Assembly (NCBI GenBank): GCA_964570625.1
Contig: CAZMYW010000019.1
Coordinates: 11,842 to 75,841 of the forward strand
Origin: an uncultured Nitrospirota bacterium
GTDB taxonomy: Bacteria > Nitrospirota > Nitrospiria > 2-01-FULL-66-17
Length of the DNA: 64,000 nucleotides
Direction: 5' to 3'
Translations under genes and position numbers: made by a program
The notes under the pieces: model-generated
The model's input: the letters and a program-made list of their open reading frames with translations, nothing else
Told to the model about the DNA's origin: nothing
Databases searched by the model: none
Shown here: positions 1,551 through 55,704 of the stretch, in pieces
How positions within the stretch are numbered: the stretch's first letter is position 1
How the letters are laid out: each line of letters begins with the position of its first letter

Positions 1551-2300
1551 ATGCCGTTTAACGCCTCAAGTCTGGCCGACCGTGTGGCATTGGTCACCGG
1601 TGCCGCGCAGGGCATCGGATGGTCGATCGCGCGACAACTCGCCGGGTGCGGGGCGTCGGTGGTCCTCGCCGACGTCGACGCCGACAAGGCGCAGGAGGCG
1701 GCCAAAACGCTCGGCAAACGGACCTTGGGCCTGGCGATGAACGTGACGAGCAGCGAGGCGGTCGCCGCCGGCATCGAGCGCGTGATGGCGGAGTTCGGTC
1801 GGCTCGACGTGTTGGTCAACAATGCGGGAATCACCCGCGACGGCCTGCTGATCCGGATGAAGGATGAGGACTGGGATCGCGTCATGGACGTCAATCTCAA
1901 CGGGACGTTCCGCTGTACCAAGGCCGCGCTGGGGGTCATGATCAAACAACGACGCGGGCGGATCATTAGTATCGCGTCGGTGGTCGGCGTCATGGGCAAC
2001 GCGGGGCAGGCCAACTACGCCGCCTCCAAGGCCGCCATCATCGGGTTTACCAAAAGCGTCGCGCGCGAGTACGCGAACCGCGGCATCACGGCCAACGCGG
2101 TGGCGCCAGGTTTCATCAAGACCGCCATGACCGACCAGTTGTCCGAAGAGGTTCAGACGCGGCTGCGCGAACAGATTCCGTTGGCGAGGCTCGGCACACC
2201 GGAGGACGTGGCCCACGCCGTGACCTTCTTGGCGTCCGACGCAGCGGCATACATCACGGGGCAAGTCGTCCACGTCAACGGTGGGATGTGGATGGGGTAG
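1551..2300 (+). CDS. fabG: 3-oxoacyl-ACP reductase
   Basis: An SDR with the VALVTGAAQGIG Rossmann motif and a NNAG..YAASKAA catalytic region. The track ORF 1230.. runs through fabD. ATG 1551 is the likely start; GTG 1527 is an alternative. Confidence 0.85.
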   Translation: MPFNASSLADRVALVTGAAQGIGWSIARQLAGCGASVVLADVDADKAQEAAKTLGKRTLGLAMNVTSSEAVAAGIERVMAEFGRLDVLVNNAGITRDGLLIRMKDEDWDRVMDVNLNGTFRCTKAALGVMIKQRRGRIISIASVVGVMGNAGQANYAASKAAIIGFTKSVAREYANRGITANAVAPGFIKTAMTDQLSEEVQTRLREQIPLARLGTPEDVAHAVTFLASDAAAYITGQVVHVNGGMWMG

Positions 2301-2307
2301 CCCGTCC

Positions 2308-2336
2308 CTGACGGTCCGCGGACGTCGGACCGTCAG
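2308..2336 (+). terminator. perfect 11-bp stem / 7-nt loop hairpin between fabG and acpP (CTGACGGTCCG-cggacgt-CGGACCGTCAG)
   Basis: The inverted repeat was read directly. There is no T-tract, so it could be an attenuator or an RNA-processing stem rather than a terminator. Confidence 0.35.
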
Positions 2337-2380
2337 TCACCGACATCACGGGACAGAGAGAACAGGAGGTGTGAGAGAGT

Positions 2381-2611
2381 ATGGGTGCTGAGGATCGCGT
2401 CAAAAAAATCATCACCGAGCAACTAGGAGTCGACGAAGAGGACGTCACGCCCGAAGCCAACTTCGTGGAGGATCTCGGCGCGGACTCGCTCGACACCGTC
2501 GAGCTGGTCATGGCGTTTGAAGAGGAATTCGGCATCGAAATTCCTGATGAGGATGCCGAAAAGATCCTGACCGTCCAGCAAGCCGTCGATTATATCAACG
2601 AAAAACTCTAA
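2381..2611 (+). CDS. acpP: acyl carrier protein
   Basis: 76 aa with the DSLDTVEL phosphopantetheine-attachment motif. A strong RBS (aggagg) lies upstream. Confidence 0.93.
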
Positions 2612-2617
2612 GTCTCG

Positions 2618-3853
2618 ATGACCCGTCGCGTCGTCATAACGGGGTTGGGCCTCATTACGCCTTTAGGCCTCACCGTGGAAGACACGTGGACGGCGCTCTG
2701 CGAGGGTCGTTCCGGCATCGGGCCGATCACACGCTTCGACACCACCGATTTCCCCGTCACCATTGCGGGCGAGGTCAAAGGGTTCGATCCCGCCAAGTAC
2801 GTCGAAAAAAAAGACGTCAAGAAGATGGACACGTTTATCCACTACGCCTGTGCAGCCGGACAGGCGGCGTTTGCCGACGCGGGCCTGCGGATGGAACTTG
2901 TCGGCCCGGAACGCGTGGGGGTGTACATCGGATCGGGCATCGGGGGGCTGCAGGCGATCGAAGAGTGGCACGACGTCTTGCGAGAAAAGGGACCCAAGCG
3001 CATTACGCCATTTTTTATCCCGATGTCCATCATCAACATGGCGTCGGGACAACTCGCGATCCTGCTCGGCGCCAAAGGCCCTAACTCTGCGGCAGTTACC
3101 GCGTGTGCCACCGGCAACCATTGCATCGGAGACGCGTTTCGTCTGGTCCAGCGCGGGGACGCCGACGTCATGATCGCAGGAGGCACTGAAGCCGCGATTA
3201 CCCCGCTCGGCGTGGCCGGCTTCGCGGCCTCGCGGGCGTTGTCCACGCGAAACGACGATCCCACCCACGCCTCCCGGCCTTTCGATCGGGACCGCGACGG
3301 ATTTGTCATCGGCGAGGGAGCCGGAGTCGTGGTGCTCGAGATCCTGGAGTCGGCCCGCCGGCGCAACGCCAACATCTACGCGGAGATCGTCGGGTACGGC
3401 GCCTCCGCGGACGCCTACCACATCACGGCTCCACCCGATGACGGTGAAGGCGCGGTGCGGTGTATGCGCACCGCCTTGAGCGACGCGGATACCAAACCCA
3501 ACGAGGTCGGGTATATCAACGCACACGCCACGTCGACCATGGCGGACGCCATCGAGACCCGCGCGATCAAGACGGTCTTCGGTTCCACGACCACGGTTGC
3601 GGTCAGTTCGACCAAATCCATGACCGGACACTTGTTGGGCGCGGCCGGCGGGATCGAAGCGGTCTTCTCCATTTTGGCGATCCAGCGGGAAATCCTGCCC
3701 CCGACCATCAATCTGGAACACCCCGACCCGGCATGCGATTTGGACTACGTGCCCAACACGGCGCGTCGCACGAGGGTGGAGGTCGCGATGTCCAACTCCT
3801 TCGGTTTTGGCGGGGTCAATGCGTGTCTGGTCTTCCGCCGCTTCAACGGCTAG
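2618..3853 (+). CDS. fabF: 3-oxoacyl-ACP synthase II (KAS II)
   Basis: 411 aa in the condensing-enzyme family (..ACATG.., [13 protein letters not shown] motifs), immediately after acpP. Confidence 0.9.
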
Positions 3854-33797: not shown

Positions 33798-34979
33798 CTA
33801 GTGGAGTTTGAGGATCAACCAGTCCATCTTGGAGCCGACGCGGAGGATGACCTTGCGGATAATGTGAACGATGTGACCGCTGTTGGTGTAGATCGCGCCC
33901 TGTCCGCGCGCGCCGGCCGCCAGGAACAGGGCCTTGTCCTTCTCGCCGACCGCGAGCCTGACGACGAGGCTTCCCTCCGGTAGAGGCGCGACGGCTTGGT
34001 TGGGGAGGTTTCCGCCGATCGGCAACTGACCGCCGGCCGTGGCCCAGACGACCGAGTCGACCGTGCACTTGATGATGCGGTTGGGATACATGCGCATCGC
34101 GATCTCGGCCTCGTTGCCCGGCTCGACCTGGCGCACCTCGTTCTGGTGAAAGAGCGCGACGACCCATTGCTCGCTCTCCACGAAACTCATCACCGGGGCC
34201 ATCACAAGTTGCGACGCCACCGCGCCCGGACGCAGTTGCAGGTTGATGACCGTCCCGTCCGCCGGCGCGTAATAGACGGTCTGTTCGAGGTTCCATTTCG
34301 CGTCAGCCACCTGCGCCTCGCCCTGGGCAATCTGCGCCTGGACCTGGGCAACCTCGTCCTGCTCGCCTTTGGTGTTCTTGGCGGCCAGTTTTTCCTTGAC
34401 CTGCCCTTCGGCGGCGGCCAGGGACGCGAGTTCATTCTCGAGGTTTTGCACGTCGGCCTGGGCCTGCTCCAGGTCGAACTTGCTGCCTGCTCCGGTGTCC
34501 GCGAGCTCTTGGAACTGCTCGACCCGCTTGTAGGCCAGGGTCAGTTTGGCGCTGAGCGCCTGCTTCTTGCCGATCGCGCTCTTGAGCTGTTCGTCGAGAC
34601 TGCGGGTATTGGCCTGGGCGGTCAGTAGCTTCGCGTTCAGCATCGCGAGATTGGCCTCCGCAGCCCGCACATCGATTTCGAAGGGCACGGGGTCGATCTT
34701 GAAGAGCACGTCGCCTTTCTTGACCGCCTGATTGGGCTCAACCGGCACCTCAATGACCCGGCCGGTGACTCGGGGCACCACGGCCACGGAGTAGTTGATC
34801 ACGCGAACGTCGTGCGACGACGGCGCCACGATATTGAGGACCAGGATGAGCACCGCCATCCCGATGATCGGAAGGGTAACGACGATGACCTGGCTGACGA
34901 TATTCCACGGAAGCCACTTGAACTTGAAGAAGATCAGCCACACGAAAAACGAATAGATAAGTAGTAGCAGCAATTCCAT
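33798..34979 (-). CDS. HlyD-family membrane-fusion protein (EmrA-like periplasmic adaptor)
   Basis: It has an N-terminal TM, a biotinyl-lipoyl-like VKKGDVLFKIDP motif and long coiled coils. Confidence 0.75.
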   Translation of the reverse strand: MELLLLLIYSFFVWLIFFKFKWLPWNIVSQVIVVTLPIIGMAVLILVLNIVAPSSHDVRVINYSVAVVPRVTGRVIEVPVEPNQAVKKGDVLFKIDPVPFEIDVRAAEANLAMLNAKLLTAQANTRSLDEQLKSAIGKKQALSAKLTLAYKRVEQFQELADTGAGSKFDLEQAQADVQNLENELASLAAAEGQVKEKLAAKNTKGEQDEVAQVQAQIAQGEAQVADAKWNLEQTVYYAPADGTVINLQLRPGAVASQLVMAPVMSFVESEQWVVALFHQNEVRQVEPGNEAEIAMRMYPNRIIKCTVDSVVWATAGGQLPIGGNLPNQAVAPLPEGSLVVRLAVGEKDKALFLAAGARGQGAIYTNSGHIVHIIRKVILRVGSKMDWLILKLH

Positions 34980-35390: not shown

Positions 35391-35677
35391 GGAGGCGCGG
35401 GCGGTGGAGGGCACCACAAGACCCAGCGCAAGCCACGACATCGGCCATGCGCGGCGGCACGATCTTAGGGTGAGCCGCACCGCCCGAGGTACGGTCGTTG
35501 ACCAGTCCGGCCGAGTGGACGACGGGAACCATGCCGAGAGGACCCAAAACGCCGTCGCAGCGACAAGCCAAGCTCGTCGCTGCGACAGGGAAGAGTTGCT
35601 TATCACGTTCATCATGTTGGCAACTCAGATCCGGGATGGTCCATCCCTGGGTCCGACCATCGACCCTCGACCACCCT

Positions 35678-37681: not shown

Positions 37682-38554
37682 CTAAAACCGGATGCCCACA
37701 CCCGCGTAAAACCCGTGCATCGCCATCTCCCACACGAACCCGTCGTCGGAATAGTCCTGGAAGAGCGCGCGATACCCGCCTTTGGCCACGAACCGCTTGG
37801 TGATCTCCCAGTTGATGCCGGCCAGCGCTTGCCCAGTCACGTCCGAGCCCACGCCGAAGCCCCCGAGGTCCGCGTACCCTACTGCCGTCCAGCGCTCCGC
37901 GAACGGGAAGAGGAGCCGGAAACCGAAGATCGGATCCCACCAGCTCTGCTGGTCGCTGACGCTGCGCGAGCCACCCGGCAGCGTCCCTCCGGTGGTCGTG
38001 GTCAGCGTGAGATGGGAGTCAAGGCTGGTGTAGCGCGTTCCGAAGATCAGATCGACCATGGAGCCATCATCCACGACGCGTTTTGCCAGAGACAGTTGGA
38101 AGATCTCGTCGGTCACATCCGCCGCAAGGTCGCCGGTTGCGGTCCCGATACCTCCGGGTCCCTGCCACGCTCTGGTGCCTTCGCCCTTGAGGTGAAAATA
38201 CACGCCGTCGAAGAGCAGCCCCCAGGATCCCTTCCGCGCCTCCACCGCCCCCATAAACGCGCTGTCGAGTCGATCCAGGATGTCTCCGACCCCCATGTCC
38301 ACGTCGGCCGTCACGCCGGCCACCCCCGCAGTACCGTCAAGACCCGCGGCGACGAAATACGGGGTGACCTCGAACTGCCACTTTTCGGGGGCCGGAGCTG
38401 GGGCTGGAGTCGTGGTTGGAGCCGGAGTCGTCGCTGGAGCCGGCGCTGGGGTCGGGGCTGGTACCGGTTCCTGCGCCTCGACGGAGCCGGAGGGAATGCC
38501 CACCCAGGCAACTGCCAGCAGCAGCGCCAGCCCCACACAAACTATTTCACGCAT
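37682..38554 (-). CDS. outer-membrane beta-barrel protein with Pro/Thr/Ala-rich linker
   Basis: It has a signal peptide, a PAPTPAPAPATTPAPTTTPAPAPAP linker and a C-terminal ..GVGIRF. Confidence 0.5.
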   Translation of the reverse strand: MREIVCVGLALLLAVAWVGIPSGSVEAQEPVPAPTPAPAPATTPAPTTTPAPAPAPEKWQFEVTPYFVAAGLDGTAGVAGVTADVDMGVGDILDRLDSAFMGAVEARKGSWGLLFDGVYFHLKGEGTRAWQGPGGIGTATGDLAADVTDEIFQLSLAKRVVDDGSMVDLIFGTRYTSLDSHLTLTTTTGGTLPGGSRSVSDQQSWWDPIFGFRLLFPFAERWTAVGYADLGGFGVGSDVTGQALAGINWEITKRFVAKGGYRALFQDYSDDGFVWEMAMHGFYAGVGIRF

Positions 38555-52357: not shown

Positions 52358-52502
52358 ATCATACTCAACCTATCGCCCCGTGCCCCTCGAACATCTCGAA
52401 CTTCGGGAGGCACTCAATGGTCATCCTGTGAATTCCAACGGACACTTCCCTTGCCAATTGCCAAATCTCAAGCTTCTTATAGCTCATCACCCACCCTCAT
52501 TC

Positions 52503-52655
52503 GGGATTCGTGATCCGGGATGCGAGATTCGCGATCCGAGATTCGAGATTTGCAGTGCTTGATCCGAGATGCGTGATTCGCGATTCGGAATATCTCGCAT
52601 CCCGCATCCCGTTTCTCGCATCTCGCAACTCGCATCCCGTATCTCGTATCTCGAC
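52503..52655. repeat. ~150-bp imperfect palindrome built from ~11 tandem 7-bp units per arm (GAT[T/C/G]CGN ... NCG[C/T]ATC)
   Basis: Left arm: gattcgt gatccgg gatgcga gattcgc gatccga gattcga ... gatccga gatgcgt gattcgc gattcgg. Right arm: cgcatcc cgcatcc cgtttct cgcatct cgcaact cgcatcc cgtatct cgtatct. It lies immediately 3' of gene 52658..53437. Confidence 0.7.
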
Positions 52656-52657
52656 AG

Positions 52658-53437
52658 TTACTTTGTGAGGGTCAACGGCTGCGTCAACGTCACGTCCGCC
52701 ACCGTACCGGCAGGAACCTTGAGGTTATTTCCTGGTCCCAGCAGCCCCACGCCGGCGCCGATCATGGCCCCTTTGCCGGCGCCAGACCCCCCGTCAACAG
52801 CTCCCCCGATGAGCGCGCCGGCAGCGGCTTTCCGAACAACCTTGCCCCCCTCGCTCTCAGCGCCGATGTGGCCGGTCGCGATCGGCACGAGCTGGTCGTT
52901 GATACTCAAATCGGTGAAGGTCATCATGATCGCCGCCTTGCCGACGCGCCTTCCGCCGATTGATTCCGTCACCGTGCCGAATACCTTGGTCCCCTTGGAG
53001 ACGATGACTGATCCGCCGCTCGCGAGATCGGTGTCCAAGACGCCGGTCACCCGGCTCCCCTTCTTGTGCGACGCCGTGCTCACGTCATGATCCAGCTTGA
53101 CCATGAGCCGCGTGCCCACCGGCAATGTCCCTGCCGCAGTCTGCGCCCCCGGAGCAGGGGTAGGCGCCGCGGGGGCTGGCGCCGATGCGGCGCGAGGCGA
53201 GTTGAAGGTGACGGACATGATGTCGGTGATGGCATAGGTCTGAACCACGCCCCCAGCCTCGACGACGACCGTCGCGTCGTTTCCGCCCTTGAACAATCCC
53301 TGCACGACCCGGCCGTCCTTGAGCATGATGGTATCGGCGCCGGCGGGTCCGGCTGCGAACAGCACTGCGACCAGACCGGTTTGCACAATAGTCCTGATTC
53401 TTTTCCTGTCATAAGCTCCGAGAGAGAACCGGTTCAT
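52658..53437 (-). CDS. hypothetical secreted protein (Gly/Ala-rich C-terminal half)
   Basis: It has a signal peptide and a [11 protein letters not shown] linker. Its start overlaps the upstream gene's stop. Confidence 0.45.
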
Positions 53438-53913: not shown

Positions 53914-54207
53914 CTATTGGGCCGGAATGGTGATCAAGGGCAGCTTCTCGTTGCCGCCGGTGTCCGCCAGCGTGAAGAAAAACATGATCGCTGTCATCGC
54001 GCGCTTCGTTTGCCGGGCTTGAGCCGCTCCGGCTCCTTCCGCCACTACATCGGGGAATCCTGGACCGTCGGTCCGGCGACGCTGGCGGAGGGCGTTGGCG
54101 GAAAGGGCAACACGGAGCCGTCGTCGGCTGCCTGAGCTACGTCCGCTGTGAGCCAGCACGCAAGCGAGCGCGGCGGCGATGAGGATCGGCGTGTGGGTGG
54201 TTGTCAT
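53914..54207 (-). pseudogene. chimeric gene remnant: shared signal-peptide module + unrelated Arg-rich middle + last 33 codons of the 57009..58133 lipoprotein gene
   Basis: The C-terminal KRAMTAIMFFFTLADTGGNEKLPLITIPAQ is identical to the 57009 gene's C-terminus. About 100 nt are near-identical, including the downstream non-coding region. Confidence 0.6.
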
Positions 54208-54243
54208 GGTTCTGACCTTTCGGTGGTTGGCAGGATTTTCCCA

Positions 54244-55398
54244 TTAGGAGACTCCACGAAGGTGTTTTATCTTTTCAAAATCACATATTGAAATGACCTG
54301 AATGCGTTCACCCAAGTCATAATTTTCTTTCCCAGGGTAAATAACGAATAATTTTTCTAACTTTAAATCATGCACGGCAATTCGCATGGATGGTGTGAGG
54401 CTTGGACGATCACTGAGCTTGATCTCAAAGCCAATTTTTCTTCCATTCTTAAGAAAGAGAAGATCCAATTCCGCCCGATTATGGGTTGCCCAAAAATAGG
54501 CGGCATCCGGTTGTACCTGTTTGAATAAGTCCTCAATCACATATCCCTCCCAGGACATCCCGCGCTTCGAATGATCTCTAAAGTCTTTCTCGTTTTGAAT
54601 TCCAAGCAGCAAGTGTAAAAGTCCTGAATCACGGACATACACCTTGGGCGCCTTCACCTGTCGTTTGCCAAGATTTTCGTGCCATGGCTGAAGCTGACGC
54701 ACCATCAAAAGATGATCCAGATAATCCAGATATTTTCGTACCGTCGGCTGGCTCACTCCGAGCGATGACGCGGGATCAGCCGCGTTCCACATCTGACCAT
54801 GGCTGTGAGCCAGCATCGTCCAAAATCGGCGGAACATTGGCGCCGGTATGTTGAGTCCCATCTGTGGGACATCCCGCTCAAGAAACGTTTGAACAAATTC
54901 CTTACGCCAGGCGTAACTGATTGCATTGGTGCCGGCAAGAAATGACTGTGGAAATCCCCCACGGAACCAATGTGTTTTTAGTTTGCGATGCGTCGCCTCT
55001 TTGAGCGAAAAACCGCTCATGAAAATCGTTTCAACCCTTCCGGCAAGGGACTCGGACGACTGTTTTAAAAGCGCCGGACTTGCACTGCCTAAAATTAAAA
55101 ACTTGGCAGGCAATGGTTTGCGGTCTGAAAGCACGCGCAATAATGGGAACAGCTCCGGTTTACGATGAATTTCATCAATCACGACAAGTCCGCGAAGCCC
55201 CGCGAGCTCCGATTTGGCGTCTTCAAGACGCACCAAATCATCCGTGTCTTCCAAATCAAAATAATTCTTCTTCTCCGCAGATAAAAACTGCCGAGCAAGG
55301 GTTGTTTTGCCGCATTGACGCGGCCCCAGCAACACCACAACTCGGCTACGCTGAATCGCTTTTTGAACGTGTTCGATCAATTGTGGCCGTTTAATCAC
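54244..55398 (-). CDS. AAA+ ATPase with DUF4143 domain, copy 2 (low-GC, probably horizontally acquired)
   Basis: It has a Walker A GPRQCGKTT, Walker B VVIDEIH, KAPKVY and GFEIKLSD. Local GC is visibly about 45-48% against about 62% in the flanks. Confidence 0.75.
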   Translation of the reverse strand: MIKRPQLIEHVQKAIQRSRVVVLLGPRQCGKTTLARQFLSAEKKNYFDLEDTDDLVRLEDAKSELAGLRGLVVIDEIHRKPELFPLLRVLSDRKPLPAKFLILGSASPALLKQSSESLAGRVETIFMSGFSLKEATHRKLKTHWFRGGFPQSFLAGTNAISYAWRKEFVQTFLERDVPQMGLNIPAPMFRRFWTMLAHSHGQMWNAADPASSLGVSQPTVRKYLDYLDHLLMVRQLQPWHENLGKRQVKAPKVYVRDSGLLHLLLGIQNEKDFRDHSKRGMSWEGYVIEDLFKQVQPDAAYFWATHNRAELDLLFLKNGRKIGFEIKLSDRPSLTPSMRIAVHDLKLEKLFVIYPGKENYDLGERIQVISICDFEKIKHLRGVS

Positions 55399-55704
55399 GA
55401 CGGGAGTGTACCATGAAATATGAAACTATATATTTCAATTTTCATTATGTAATTTCACGGACCTGAAACAGCCCCGATCAGAAATCAAACCCCAATGCCA
55501 AATTCAGGCGGACATCATTTTTCTTCGGCACCACGCCGTCGGCCCCCGGGTTGTGGATATGCGGTGCGATCCCAGATTAACGACATGTCGAAATCGAACA
55601 CCCGGGTCAAGGCGGTCAACGCGAAGTTCCCAATCAGCAGAACCGCAGCGAGGCTCGCACGGGTCTTCGTGACATTCGGCAGTTCTTCGCCCTGGCCACC
55701 GCGA

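Follow-up and report, generated by a model that had tools for sequence, protein, structure and literature searches.

A heptamer palindrome adjoining a PF05635 gene remnant in a Nitrospirota contig very probably represents the arm pair of a decayed intervening-sequence-type cassette

We analyzed a 64,000-nucleotide stretch (64 kb, the window) of contig CAZMYW010000019.1 from an uncultured Nitrospirota bacterium, in which a heptamer-periodic imperfect hairpin occupies positions 52499-52654. The hairpin is adjoined by the remnant of a PF05635 gene, the family of the four-helix-bundle protein of 23S rRNA intervening sequences (IVSs; IVS protein, IVP). Because of this remnant we regard the palindrome as very probably the arm pair of a decayed cassette of the IVS type, and the explanation that we favor overall, with distinctly less assurance, is that this arm pair acts as an RNA-processing stem. 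The remnant was absent from an earlier note made from the letters of the window alone, and it is the remnant that identifies the element. PF05635 genes are nearly always bracketed by inverted heptamer arrays, in many phyla and in distant subfamilies. The palindrome of the window would then be what remains of a selfish or commensal cassette, with the testable prediction that the operon contains a site of double-strand-RNA processing. As a relic, the window copy is of modest interest; more interesting is the rule that holds across the family, and the cassette family is widespread, little studied and related to the rRNA IVSs.

The palindrome was read directly, with Tandem Repeats Finder and by lag-7 autocorrelation. 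On the minus strand the units of the 5' arm are GATACGA, GATACGG, GATGCGA, GTTGCGA, GATGCGA, GAAACGG, GATGCGG, GATGCGA and GATATTC. On the plus strand, 52499-52591 consists of 13 units ATNCGNG, i.e. GATNCGN shifted by one base, of which the two central ones (52548-52561) are degenerate, and 52592-52654 consists of 9 units ATCNCGN of the reverse-complement type; the two arms abut without loop sequence between them. Tandem Repeats Finder detected period 7 twice, with 12.7 copies at 52499-52587 and 8.9 copies (80% matches) at 52592-52653, and the lag-7 autocorrelation was 0.66 in the left half and 0.79 in the right half, against a window-wide mean of 0.257 (sd 0.062). The hairpin that the earlier note had placed at 52503-52655 was thereby confirmed, its periodicity persisted on re-alignment by register reading and Tandem Repeats Finder, and its estimate of about 11 and about 10 units was essentially right. 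Each arm holds a chain of 8 GATNC units. The palindrome is the sole place in the window with a lag-7 autocorrelation of at least 0.6, and chains of at least four GATNC-type units were found there and in one 4-unit run of chance level at 35618. The GC skew on the minus strand is +0.49 in the 5' arm and -0.25 in the 3' arm, and the GC content is 0.52 in the 300 bp around the hairpin, compared with 0.62 for the window and 0.66-0.70 for the adjoining genes, a composition that looks foreign.

The inverted-repeat arms are 49-55 nt long with a complementarity of 71-78%, and the predicted hairpin is an imperfect stem of ~65 bp. The minus-strand RNA folded at -76.6 kcal/mol (shuffles -55.1 +/- 3.9; z -5.6; 0 of 200 as good) and the DNA at -38 kcal/mol (z -4.2), so that both folds, which had been proposed as a check, lie beyond those of the shuffles. 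Of the functions suggested in the earlier note, an RNA structure is the best guess. With Rfam at the gathering threshold the single match in the whole window was a tRNA elsewhere, and at E<=1 the palindrome region gave two chance-level matches and no family.

The remnant ORF begins with an ATG at 52487, about 12 nt past the hairpin on the minus strand, and similar array-to-ATG spacing is frequent in intact cassettes. Judged by similarity, the remnant is the N-terminal third (~35-38 residues) of a PF05635 four-helix-bundle protein of the 23S rRNA IVS protein, Avd-like type. It matched Pfam PF05635 at positions 1-30 of 106 (E 0.031), and PF05635 is present in each of five homologues found among 5.8 billion sequences (64-79% identity, E 2e-9 to 7e-6). 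When full-length family members were used in tblastn, residues 1-38/39 of the remnant aligned with E about 1e-12, and no further PF05635-family fragment was detected in the window. The similarity ends near codon 35, around 52371-52386, and the ORF stop adjoins a 143-aa gene; the remnant is therefore a truncated pseudogene, from which the 3' two-thirds of the gene and any downstream arm were deleted. Since the start of the 143-aa gene lies 8 nt past the remnant stop, the deletion ends just upstream of this gene. The nearest relatives of the remnant (L090/L091, L092, L002, L003 and L093) are all damaged by internal deletion, premature stops or frameshifts, in a sample that is possibly biased, as the 40-aa query gave only 7 candidates. 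The 40-aa remnant, like the 259-aa protein encoded upstream of the hairpin, is a singleton.

The cassette family was characterized from 80 + 9 loci. The 80 loci were obtained in a scan of one genome per species using an alignment of family members as query, and represent more than eight phyla, from Ignavibacteriota, Bacteroidota, Desulfobacterota, Marinimicrobia, Planctomycetota, Armatimonadota, Verrucomicrobiota, Fibrobacterota and Rhodothermales. In the first homologue contigs, L002 and L003, the gene is bracketed by inverted heptamer arrays, and the cassettes are placed after the stop of one host gene and ahead of the ribosome-binding site of the gene that follows. At least three consecutive units with a GATNC core were present in 76 of the 80 upstream flanks and, as the reverse complement, in 73 of the 80 downstream flanks (both in 69/80), against a control rate of 2% for runs of at least three GATNC units in 698 segments from the same loci. 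Autocorrelation maxima in the flanks occurred at lags 7, 14 and 21 alone (0.48 vs 0.25). Over the surveyed arms the unit logo is G (.96), A (.87), T (.90), N, C (.83), T (.80), N, and an arm contains 3-15 units (median 6); 69/80 loci have a G-rich 5' arm and 67/80 a C-rich 3' arm. The upstream neighbor is co-directional in 69 of 73 loci, with its stop codon at the first array unit (median -2 nt). The downstream neighbor has one of two arrangements: it is co-directional and some 25 nt remain for a ribosome site, or it is convergent and its stop falls where the array ends. An intact cassette of about 510 bp (about 512) consists of a G-rich array, a short leader, a PF05635 gene of ~124 codons and the complementary C-rich array. 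Arms of the same locus pair better than arms taken from different loci (residual -7.8 kcal/mol; 0/10,000 permutations), and in the minimum-energy folds of the whole cassettes the 5' and 3' arrays are paired with each other in 73/79 loci, which gives, in these predicted structures, a stem-enclosing-ORF topology as in the rRNA IVS. Phage records contained no IVP match.

The bracketing by arrays holds for genes in rRNA, in housekeeping operons (dxr and rseP) and in cas operons (cas6 and cas4). Members of the family on cyanobacterial plasmids, 28-44% identical, are also flanked by heptamer arrays, and their units differ: GTGACAG / CTGTCAC in Anabaena sp. 90 (L098, pANA02, between cas6 and cas4), GGGAGTA / TACTCCC in Nostoc edaphicum (between nrdB and nrdA), AAAGGGA / TCCCTTT in Geminocystis, and GCAGARG / CYTCTGC in Nostoc 7120 and Stanieria. 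On plasmid AZO_p2 of Azospirillum lipoferum 4B (L096, 1100-1620) an unannotated PF05635-like ORF was found inside a 23S rRNA gene, a true IVS, and its arms are heptamer-periodic as well (CAGAGGA.CGGATGA / TCCGTCC.TCTGTCT). The 7-nt period, and not the unit sequence, is constant across the family. In Ignavibacteria a cassette between dxr and rseP was recovered from dozens of samples (L103-L122; e.g. L103 1338-1884 and L114 1338-1912), and two strain variants of it with near-identical flanks differ by exactly 28 nt, i.e. 4 units, in the 3' array. Considered as DNA, the arrays are simple-sequence repeats in their behavior, changing in steps of whole units. In this cassette the first GAT unit includes the TGA stop of dxr.

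The arms in the window match those of the family in the GATNC core, in runs of at least three units, and in the order of a G-rich 5' array followed by the complementary C-rich 3' array; a Rhodothermales cassette (L049) carries the very unit of the window, GATGCGG / CCGCATC. As in the family, a co-directional upstream gene ends right at the 5' array (its stop is 4 nt away, vs the family median of -2 nt), and an ORF homologous to PF05635 is present, by its N-terminal part alone. At two loci, L093 and L057, the gene lies between two complete hairpin modules (G-array, loop, C-array), which matches the layout of the window. The L093 protein is among the nearest relatives of the remnant, and its two modules are homologous (78% identical over 76 nt). 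In L057 (Saprospiraceae metagenome-assembled genome (MAG), 2100-3170) the composite modules flanking the IVP gene are direct repeats, 97% identical over 230 nt, which points either to a duplication of recent date or to an integration through recombination at a hairpin module. Each L057 module is a heptamer array followed by three tandem units of ~68-81 nt, each made of a loop plus a complementary array. The idea that the loops of the hairpin modules are themselves IVP remnants was not supported by blastn. The simplest reading of the window is one hairpin module (9 + 13 units), the leader and the first ~35 codons, followed by a deletion up to the next host gene. Locus L001 is identical to the window.

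Several observations weigh against a decayed cassette whose arms form a processing stem. The remnant lies outside the hairpin and not between the arms, a layout found in a minority of 2-3 of about 85 loci, and the complementarity of the arms is about 70-76% when aligned without gaps. The variable positions of the units show hardly any mirroring between the arms of the surveyed cassettes (0.70 for the own locus vs 0.66 for other loci), and non-Watson-Crick pairs show no excess of G.U over A.C (172 vs 154, p 0.35); these data thus do not demonstrate selection for pairing specifically in the sense RNA, and they agree just as well with a role at the DNA level or in protein binding. In Pseudanabaena galeata (L100, pPg_01, between cas6 and cas4) the arrays are direct, AAAAGCT x14 upstream and AAAAGCC x10 downstream, the one clear exception to the inverted-array rule. 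IVP proteins present on 17-32 contigs are all at one site, between dxr and rseP, with no identical copies at multiple sites, so that recent mobility is not shown. An orthologous empty or full site was not found in protein, contig and metagenome searches: contigs with a 90%-identical SYLF protein differ in their upstream sequence and end 160 nt upstream, a relative with the pair of membrane gene and SYLF gene has another upstream sequence, and the relatives of the 259-aa protein in the metagenome scan and protein search (<=51% identity) stand in other contexts. Finally, RNase III cutting has been shown for rRNA IVSs, and for the stem of the window we infer an RNase III-type cleavage by analogy.

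Part of this evidence bears on another role of the arrays, raised in the earlier note as a protein-binding array: a DNA or RNA binding platform, possibly for the pentameric four-helix-bundle protein acting in trans, with the hairpin as a by-product. The conserved 7-nt period with non-conserved units across the subfamilies would agree with such a platform, as would the imperfect pairing between arms, the variable positions that are not mirrored and the direct arrays of L100. The units are, however, wholly different between subfamilies and between arrays of one genome, a diversity that argues against a sequence-specific reader, and the arms of a locus match each other above chance, closing the cassette in most of the predicted folds; we consider this role unlikely.

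That the window element works through RNA processing is a tentative proposal, drawn by analogy with the rRNA IVSs. As the region shows no promoter or terminator consensus and the genes are co-oriented with tiny gaps, the hairpin is presumably transcribed within the operon mRNA. The arrays would pair in this mRNA into the imperfect stem, and the stem would be a double-strand-RNA processing site, a substrate of the RNase III type like the heptamer-containing stem of the rRNA IVS. Cleavage would uncouple the transcript's upstream half from its downstream half, and the upstream message would keep a protective 3' hairpin. In the Coxiella IVS, two or three tandem GACAGAT units lie just upstream of the S23p ORF, and RNase III makes its 5' cut at the first heptamer repeat (PMC4990558). 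Excision of IVSs by RNase III in Salmonella, Leptospira and Alphaproteobacteria is cited in the same paper (PMC4990558).

A Rho-independent terminator or attenuator after the gene of the 259-aa secreted protein is a very improbable function of the hairpin. The hairpin is very stable and stands directly past a stop codon, and transcripts of Xanthomonas often end at such repeats. It lacks a U-run after the stem, where the sequence is CCCGAAUGAGGGUGGGUG, and the terminator and promoter consensus scan of 52490-52660 found neither an intrinsic terminator nor a sigma-70-like promoter. The genes downstream have the same orientation and are spaced 0-12 nt apart, no promoter-like site for them was found in the scan, and in other genomes the cassette lies inside conserved operons, between dxr and rseP or between cas6 and cas4. 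The strong terminator suggested in the earlier note is therefore not supported.

The decayed cassette resembles the 23S rRNA IVSs of Leptospira, Coxiella burnetii, Brucella and Azospirillum in its PF05635 interior and its inverted repeats forming a long closing stem, as well as in the tandem heptamers in the arms, a GC content below that of the host and an ORF that is often decaying. It differs from these IVSs, which occupy helix 9, 25 or 45, in its location in an operon, with protein-coding genes on either side and no rRNA in the whole window, and in the truncated ORF outside the hairpin.

A second relationship is that to the paired heptamer arrays of other bacteria. Rehm et al. (2015) described about 185 arrays of GGGAATC (reverse complement GATTCCC) in each Xanthomonas genome, of which at least 70 are in convergent pairs close to an upstream stop codon; transcripts start or end at the arrays on either strand, and the arrays were read as G-quadruplexes (PMC4692102). 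Solo inverted heptamer pairs with gaps of 21-67 nt are common in Xanthomonas, for example between groES and groEL, atpA and atpG, and gltB and gltD (PMC4692102). In Geobacter metallireducens, paired heptanucleotide arrays between adjacent operon genes (proB and proA, and others) were described as putative global-regulator sites by Aklujkar et al. 2009 (PMC2700814). The element of the window shares with the GGGAATC arrays of Xanthomonas and Nostoc and with the Geobacter pairs the 7-nt units, ~4 to >20 per array, the convergent order with the G-rich array first, the position a few nt from an upstream stop, the mostly co-directional genes and the varying number of units, and the other strand of the Xanthomonas unit, GATTCCC, has the same GATNC core. 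It differs in its four-helix-bundle gene, to which the arrays are not linked in the papers of Rehm et al. and Aklujkar et al. We found that repeat no. 15 of Rehm et al. abuts XCC0516, which is PDB 2GSC and a PF05635 homologue (E 1.4e-8); a connection of XCC0516 and this repeat to the four-helix-bundle family is absent from their paper (PMC4692102), and a link between the PF05635 family in general and heptamer arrays appears unreported in searchable papers.

These arrays raise the question whether the window holds an independent solo pair, either a G-quadruplex former or a global-regulator site, beside which an IVP fragment landed by chance. Such pairs are common between adjacent genes in Xanthomonas (PMC4692102) and also occur in Geobacter metallireducens (PMC2700814), and solo heptamer hairpins with unrelated units lie near the IVP loci L023, L026, L055 and L074. 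Against this, the GATNCGN unit, the G-rich-then-C-rich polarity and the stop-codon position in the window are exactly those of IVP cassette arms, the remnant is 12 nt from the hairpin, and the sole array and the sole IVP fragment of the 64 kb stand side by side. The G-quadruplex variant fails, with three GGG runs in the arm: GGG is present in 3/9 units of the G-rich arm, non-consecutively, while the definition of Rehm et al. asks for at least four consecutive units with a G-tract of at least 3, and most units of the window have no G-tract. The convergent arrays of the window do agree with the repeats of Rehm et al. in lying no more than about 50 nt from a stop codon. A chance neighborhood of this kind is thus improbable. 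The solo hairpins near IVP cassettes are gene-less, heptamer-periodic and a few kb away from the cassettes (L023 792-883, L026 2729-2843, L055 561-702, L074 1262-1435); their units AAGGAAA, AGAGTGC, CAATTA and AAATTCG, respectively, are unrelated to GATNC, and there is roughly one per 30 kb of sequence flanking the IVP cassettes.

Other repeat systems are less similar. Like repetitive extragenic palindromes (REPs), bacterial interspersed mosaic elements (BIMEs) and REP doublets forming hairpins (REPINs) with their REP-associated tyrosine transposases (RAYTs), the element is an intergenic palindrome just past a stop and a possible mRNA hairpin, and, as with REPs and RAYTs, repeats typically stand on both sides of the associated gene and copies without a gene are scattered. 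A REP is a fixed palindrome of ~20-40 nt, unlike the tandem heptamer array described here, and PF05635 has no known catalytic activity, unlike the RAYT transposase. The judgment that the palindrome is no typical REP was borne out, since it is a tandem array without a second copy in the window or an Rfam family. The same is true for CRISPR, which the earlier note had already set aside: a CRISPR array has repeats of 23-50 nt with unique spacers, and the units here are 7 nt, head to tail and without spacers. The Avd protein of diversity-generating retroelements (DGRs) is a homologue; it is pentameric, forms a four-helix bundle and binds nucleic acid as well as a reverse transcriptase (see also PMC10053308). 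Unlike in the DGR context, no reverse transcriptase or other DGR-type gene was found among the annotated neighbors within about 4-5 kb. In a survey of cas loci, 18 IVP genes were located between cas genes and a functional link was suggested (PMC3936711). As the loci with an IVP gene between cas6 and cas4 carry arrays, opportunistic insertion after stop codons is an alternative reading of that finding.

It is conceivable, and in our estimate unlikely, that IVP/Avd-like genes and heptamer arrays make up a system of two components, as RAYT and REPIN do, in which the protein may act on nucleic acid with a 7-nt period and generate, spread, maintain or read the arrays. If so, the gene-less operon hairpins of Xanthomonas, Geobacter, cyanobacteria and the window would be footprints or landing pads of the IVP protein, and both the overrepresentation of heptamers among the long simple-sequence repeats of bacteria, noted long ago, and the sightings of CRISPR-associated IVPs could be explained. 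The survey ties together the rRNA IVSs, the GGGAATC repeats of Xanthomonas, the global-regulator sites of Geobacter and the CRISPR-associated IVP genes, and gives an experimental handle on the dominance of the 7-nt period among long bacterial repeats.

The features of the window around the hairpin are listed in Table 1.

Table 1. Positions of the hairpin arms, the gene remnant and the neighboring genes in the window
Feature	Position	Strand	Remarks
G-rich 5' arm, 9 heptamer units GATRCGR	52592..52654	minus	direct reading, Tandem Repeats Finder, lag-7 autocorrelation
C-rich 3' arm, 13 units NCGNATC	52499..52591	minus	direct reading, Tandem Repeats Finder, lag-7 autocorrelation
Leader GAGGGTGGGTG, 11 nt, Shine-Dalgarno-like GAGGG	52488..52498	minus	between 3' arm and remnant ATG
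Remnant ORF, 40 codons + stop	52365..52487	minus	PF05635 / TIGR02436-type N-terminus
Membrane protein, 149 aa	53883-53434	minus	first gene in order, paralog of 143-aa gene
259-aa protein, signal-peptide-like N-terminus, Gly-zipper C-terminus	53437-52658	minus	directly upstream of hairpin
Membrane protein, 143 aa, paralog of 149-aa protein	52357-51926	minus	downstream of remnant ORF
SYLF lipoprotein, 241 aa	51929-51204	minus	after 143-aa gene

Every gene neighboring the hairpin is on the minus strand. The hairpin begins 4 nt past the stop codon of the 259-aa gene (52658-52660), in agreement with its description in the earlier note as immediately 3' of a secreted-protein gene, and it does lie, as also described there, between two duplicated membrane-protein genes, whose products of 149 and 143 aa are 74% identical (about 80% at the DNA level). 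A recombination hotspot underlying this local duplication had been proposed, and the position of the hairpin between the paralogs, the gain and loss of units by the arrays and the direct-repeat modules of L057 would be compatible with it. The paralogs are old, however, as judged by their amino acid identity, their DNA homology begins at the start codon and not before, and the copy encoding the 149-aa protein has no flanking heptamer array. Their partner genes are unrelated (259-aa Gly-zipper protein vs 241-aa SYLF lipoprotein), and the relative with the membrane-gene and SYLF pair differs upstream. The hotspot is therefore a highly improbable explanation and was abandoned.

The neighboring ORFs within about 4-5 kb encode membrane, SYLF, HAD and DUF4143 proteins or belong to no family, and the nearest named relatives of these genes are Acidobacteriota/Aminicenantes-like MAGs. 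An island of low GC content (0.40-0.52 vs 0.62 for the window) at 54200-55500 coincides with a DUF4143/AAA_14 ATPase gene (54244-55398, minus strand) and was probably acquired horizontally. The other repeats reported by Tandem Repeats Finder, at 34309-34354 (period 21) and at 38397-38461 (period 18/12 nt), are probably in-frame coding repeats.

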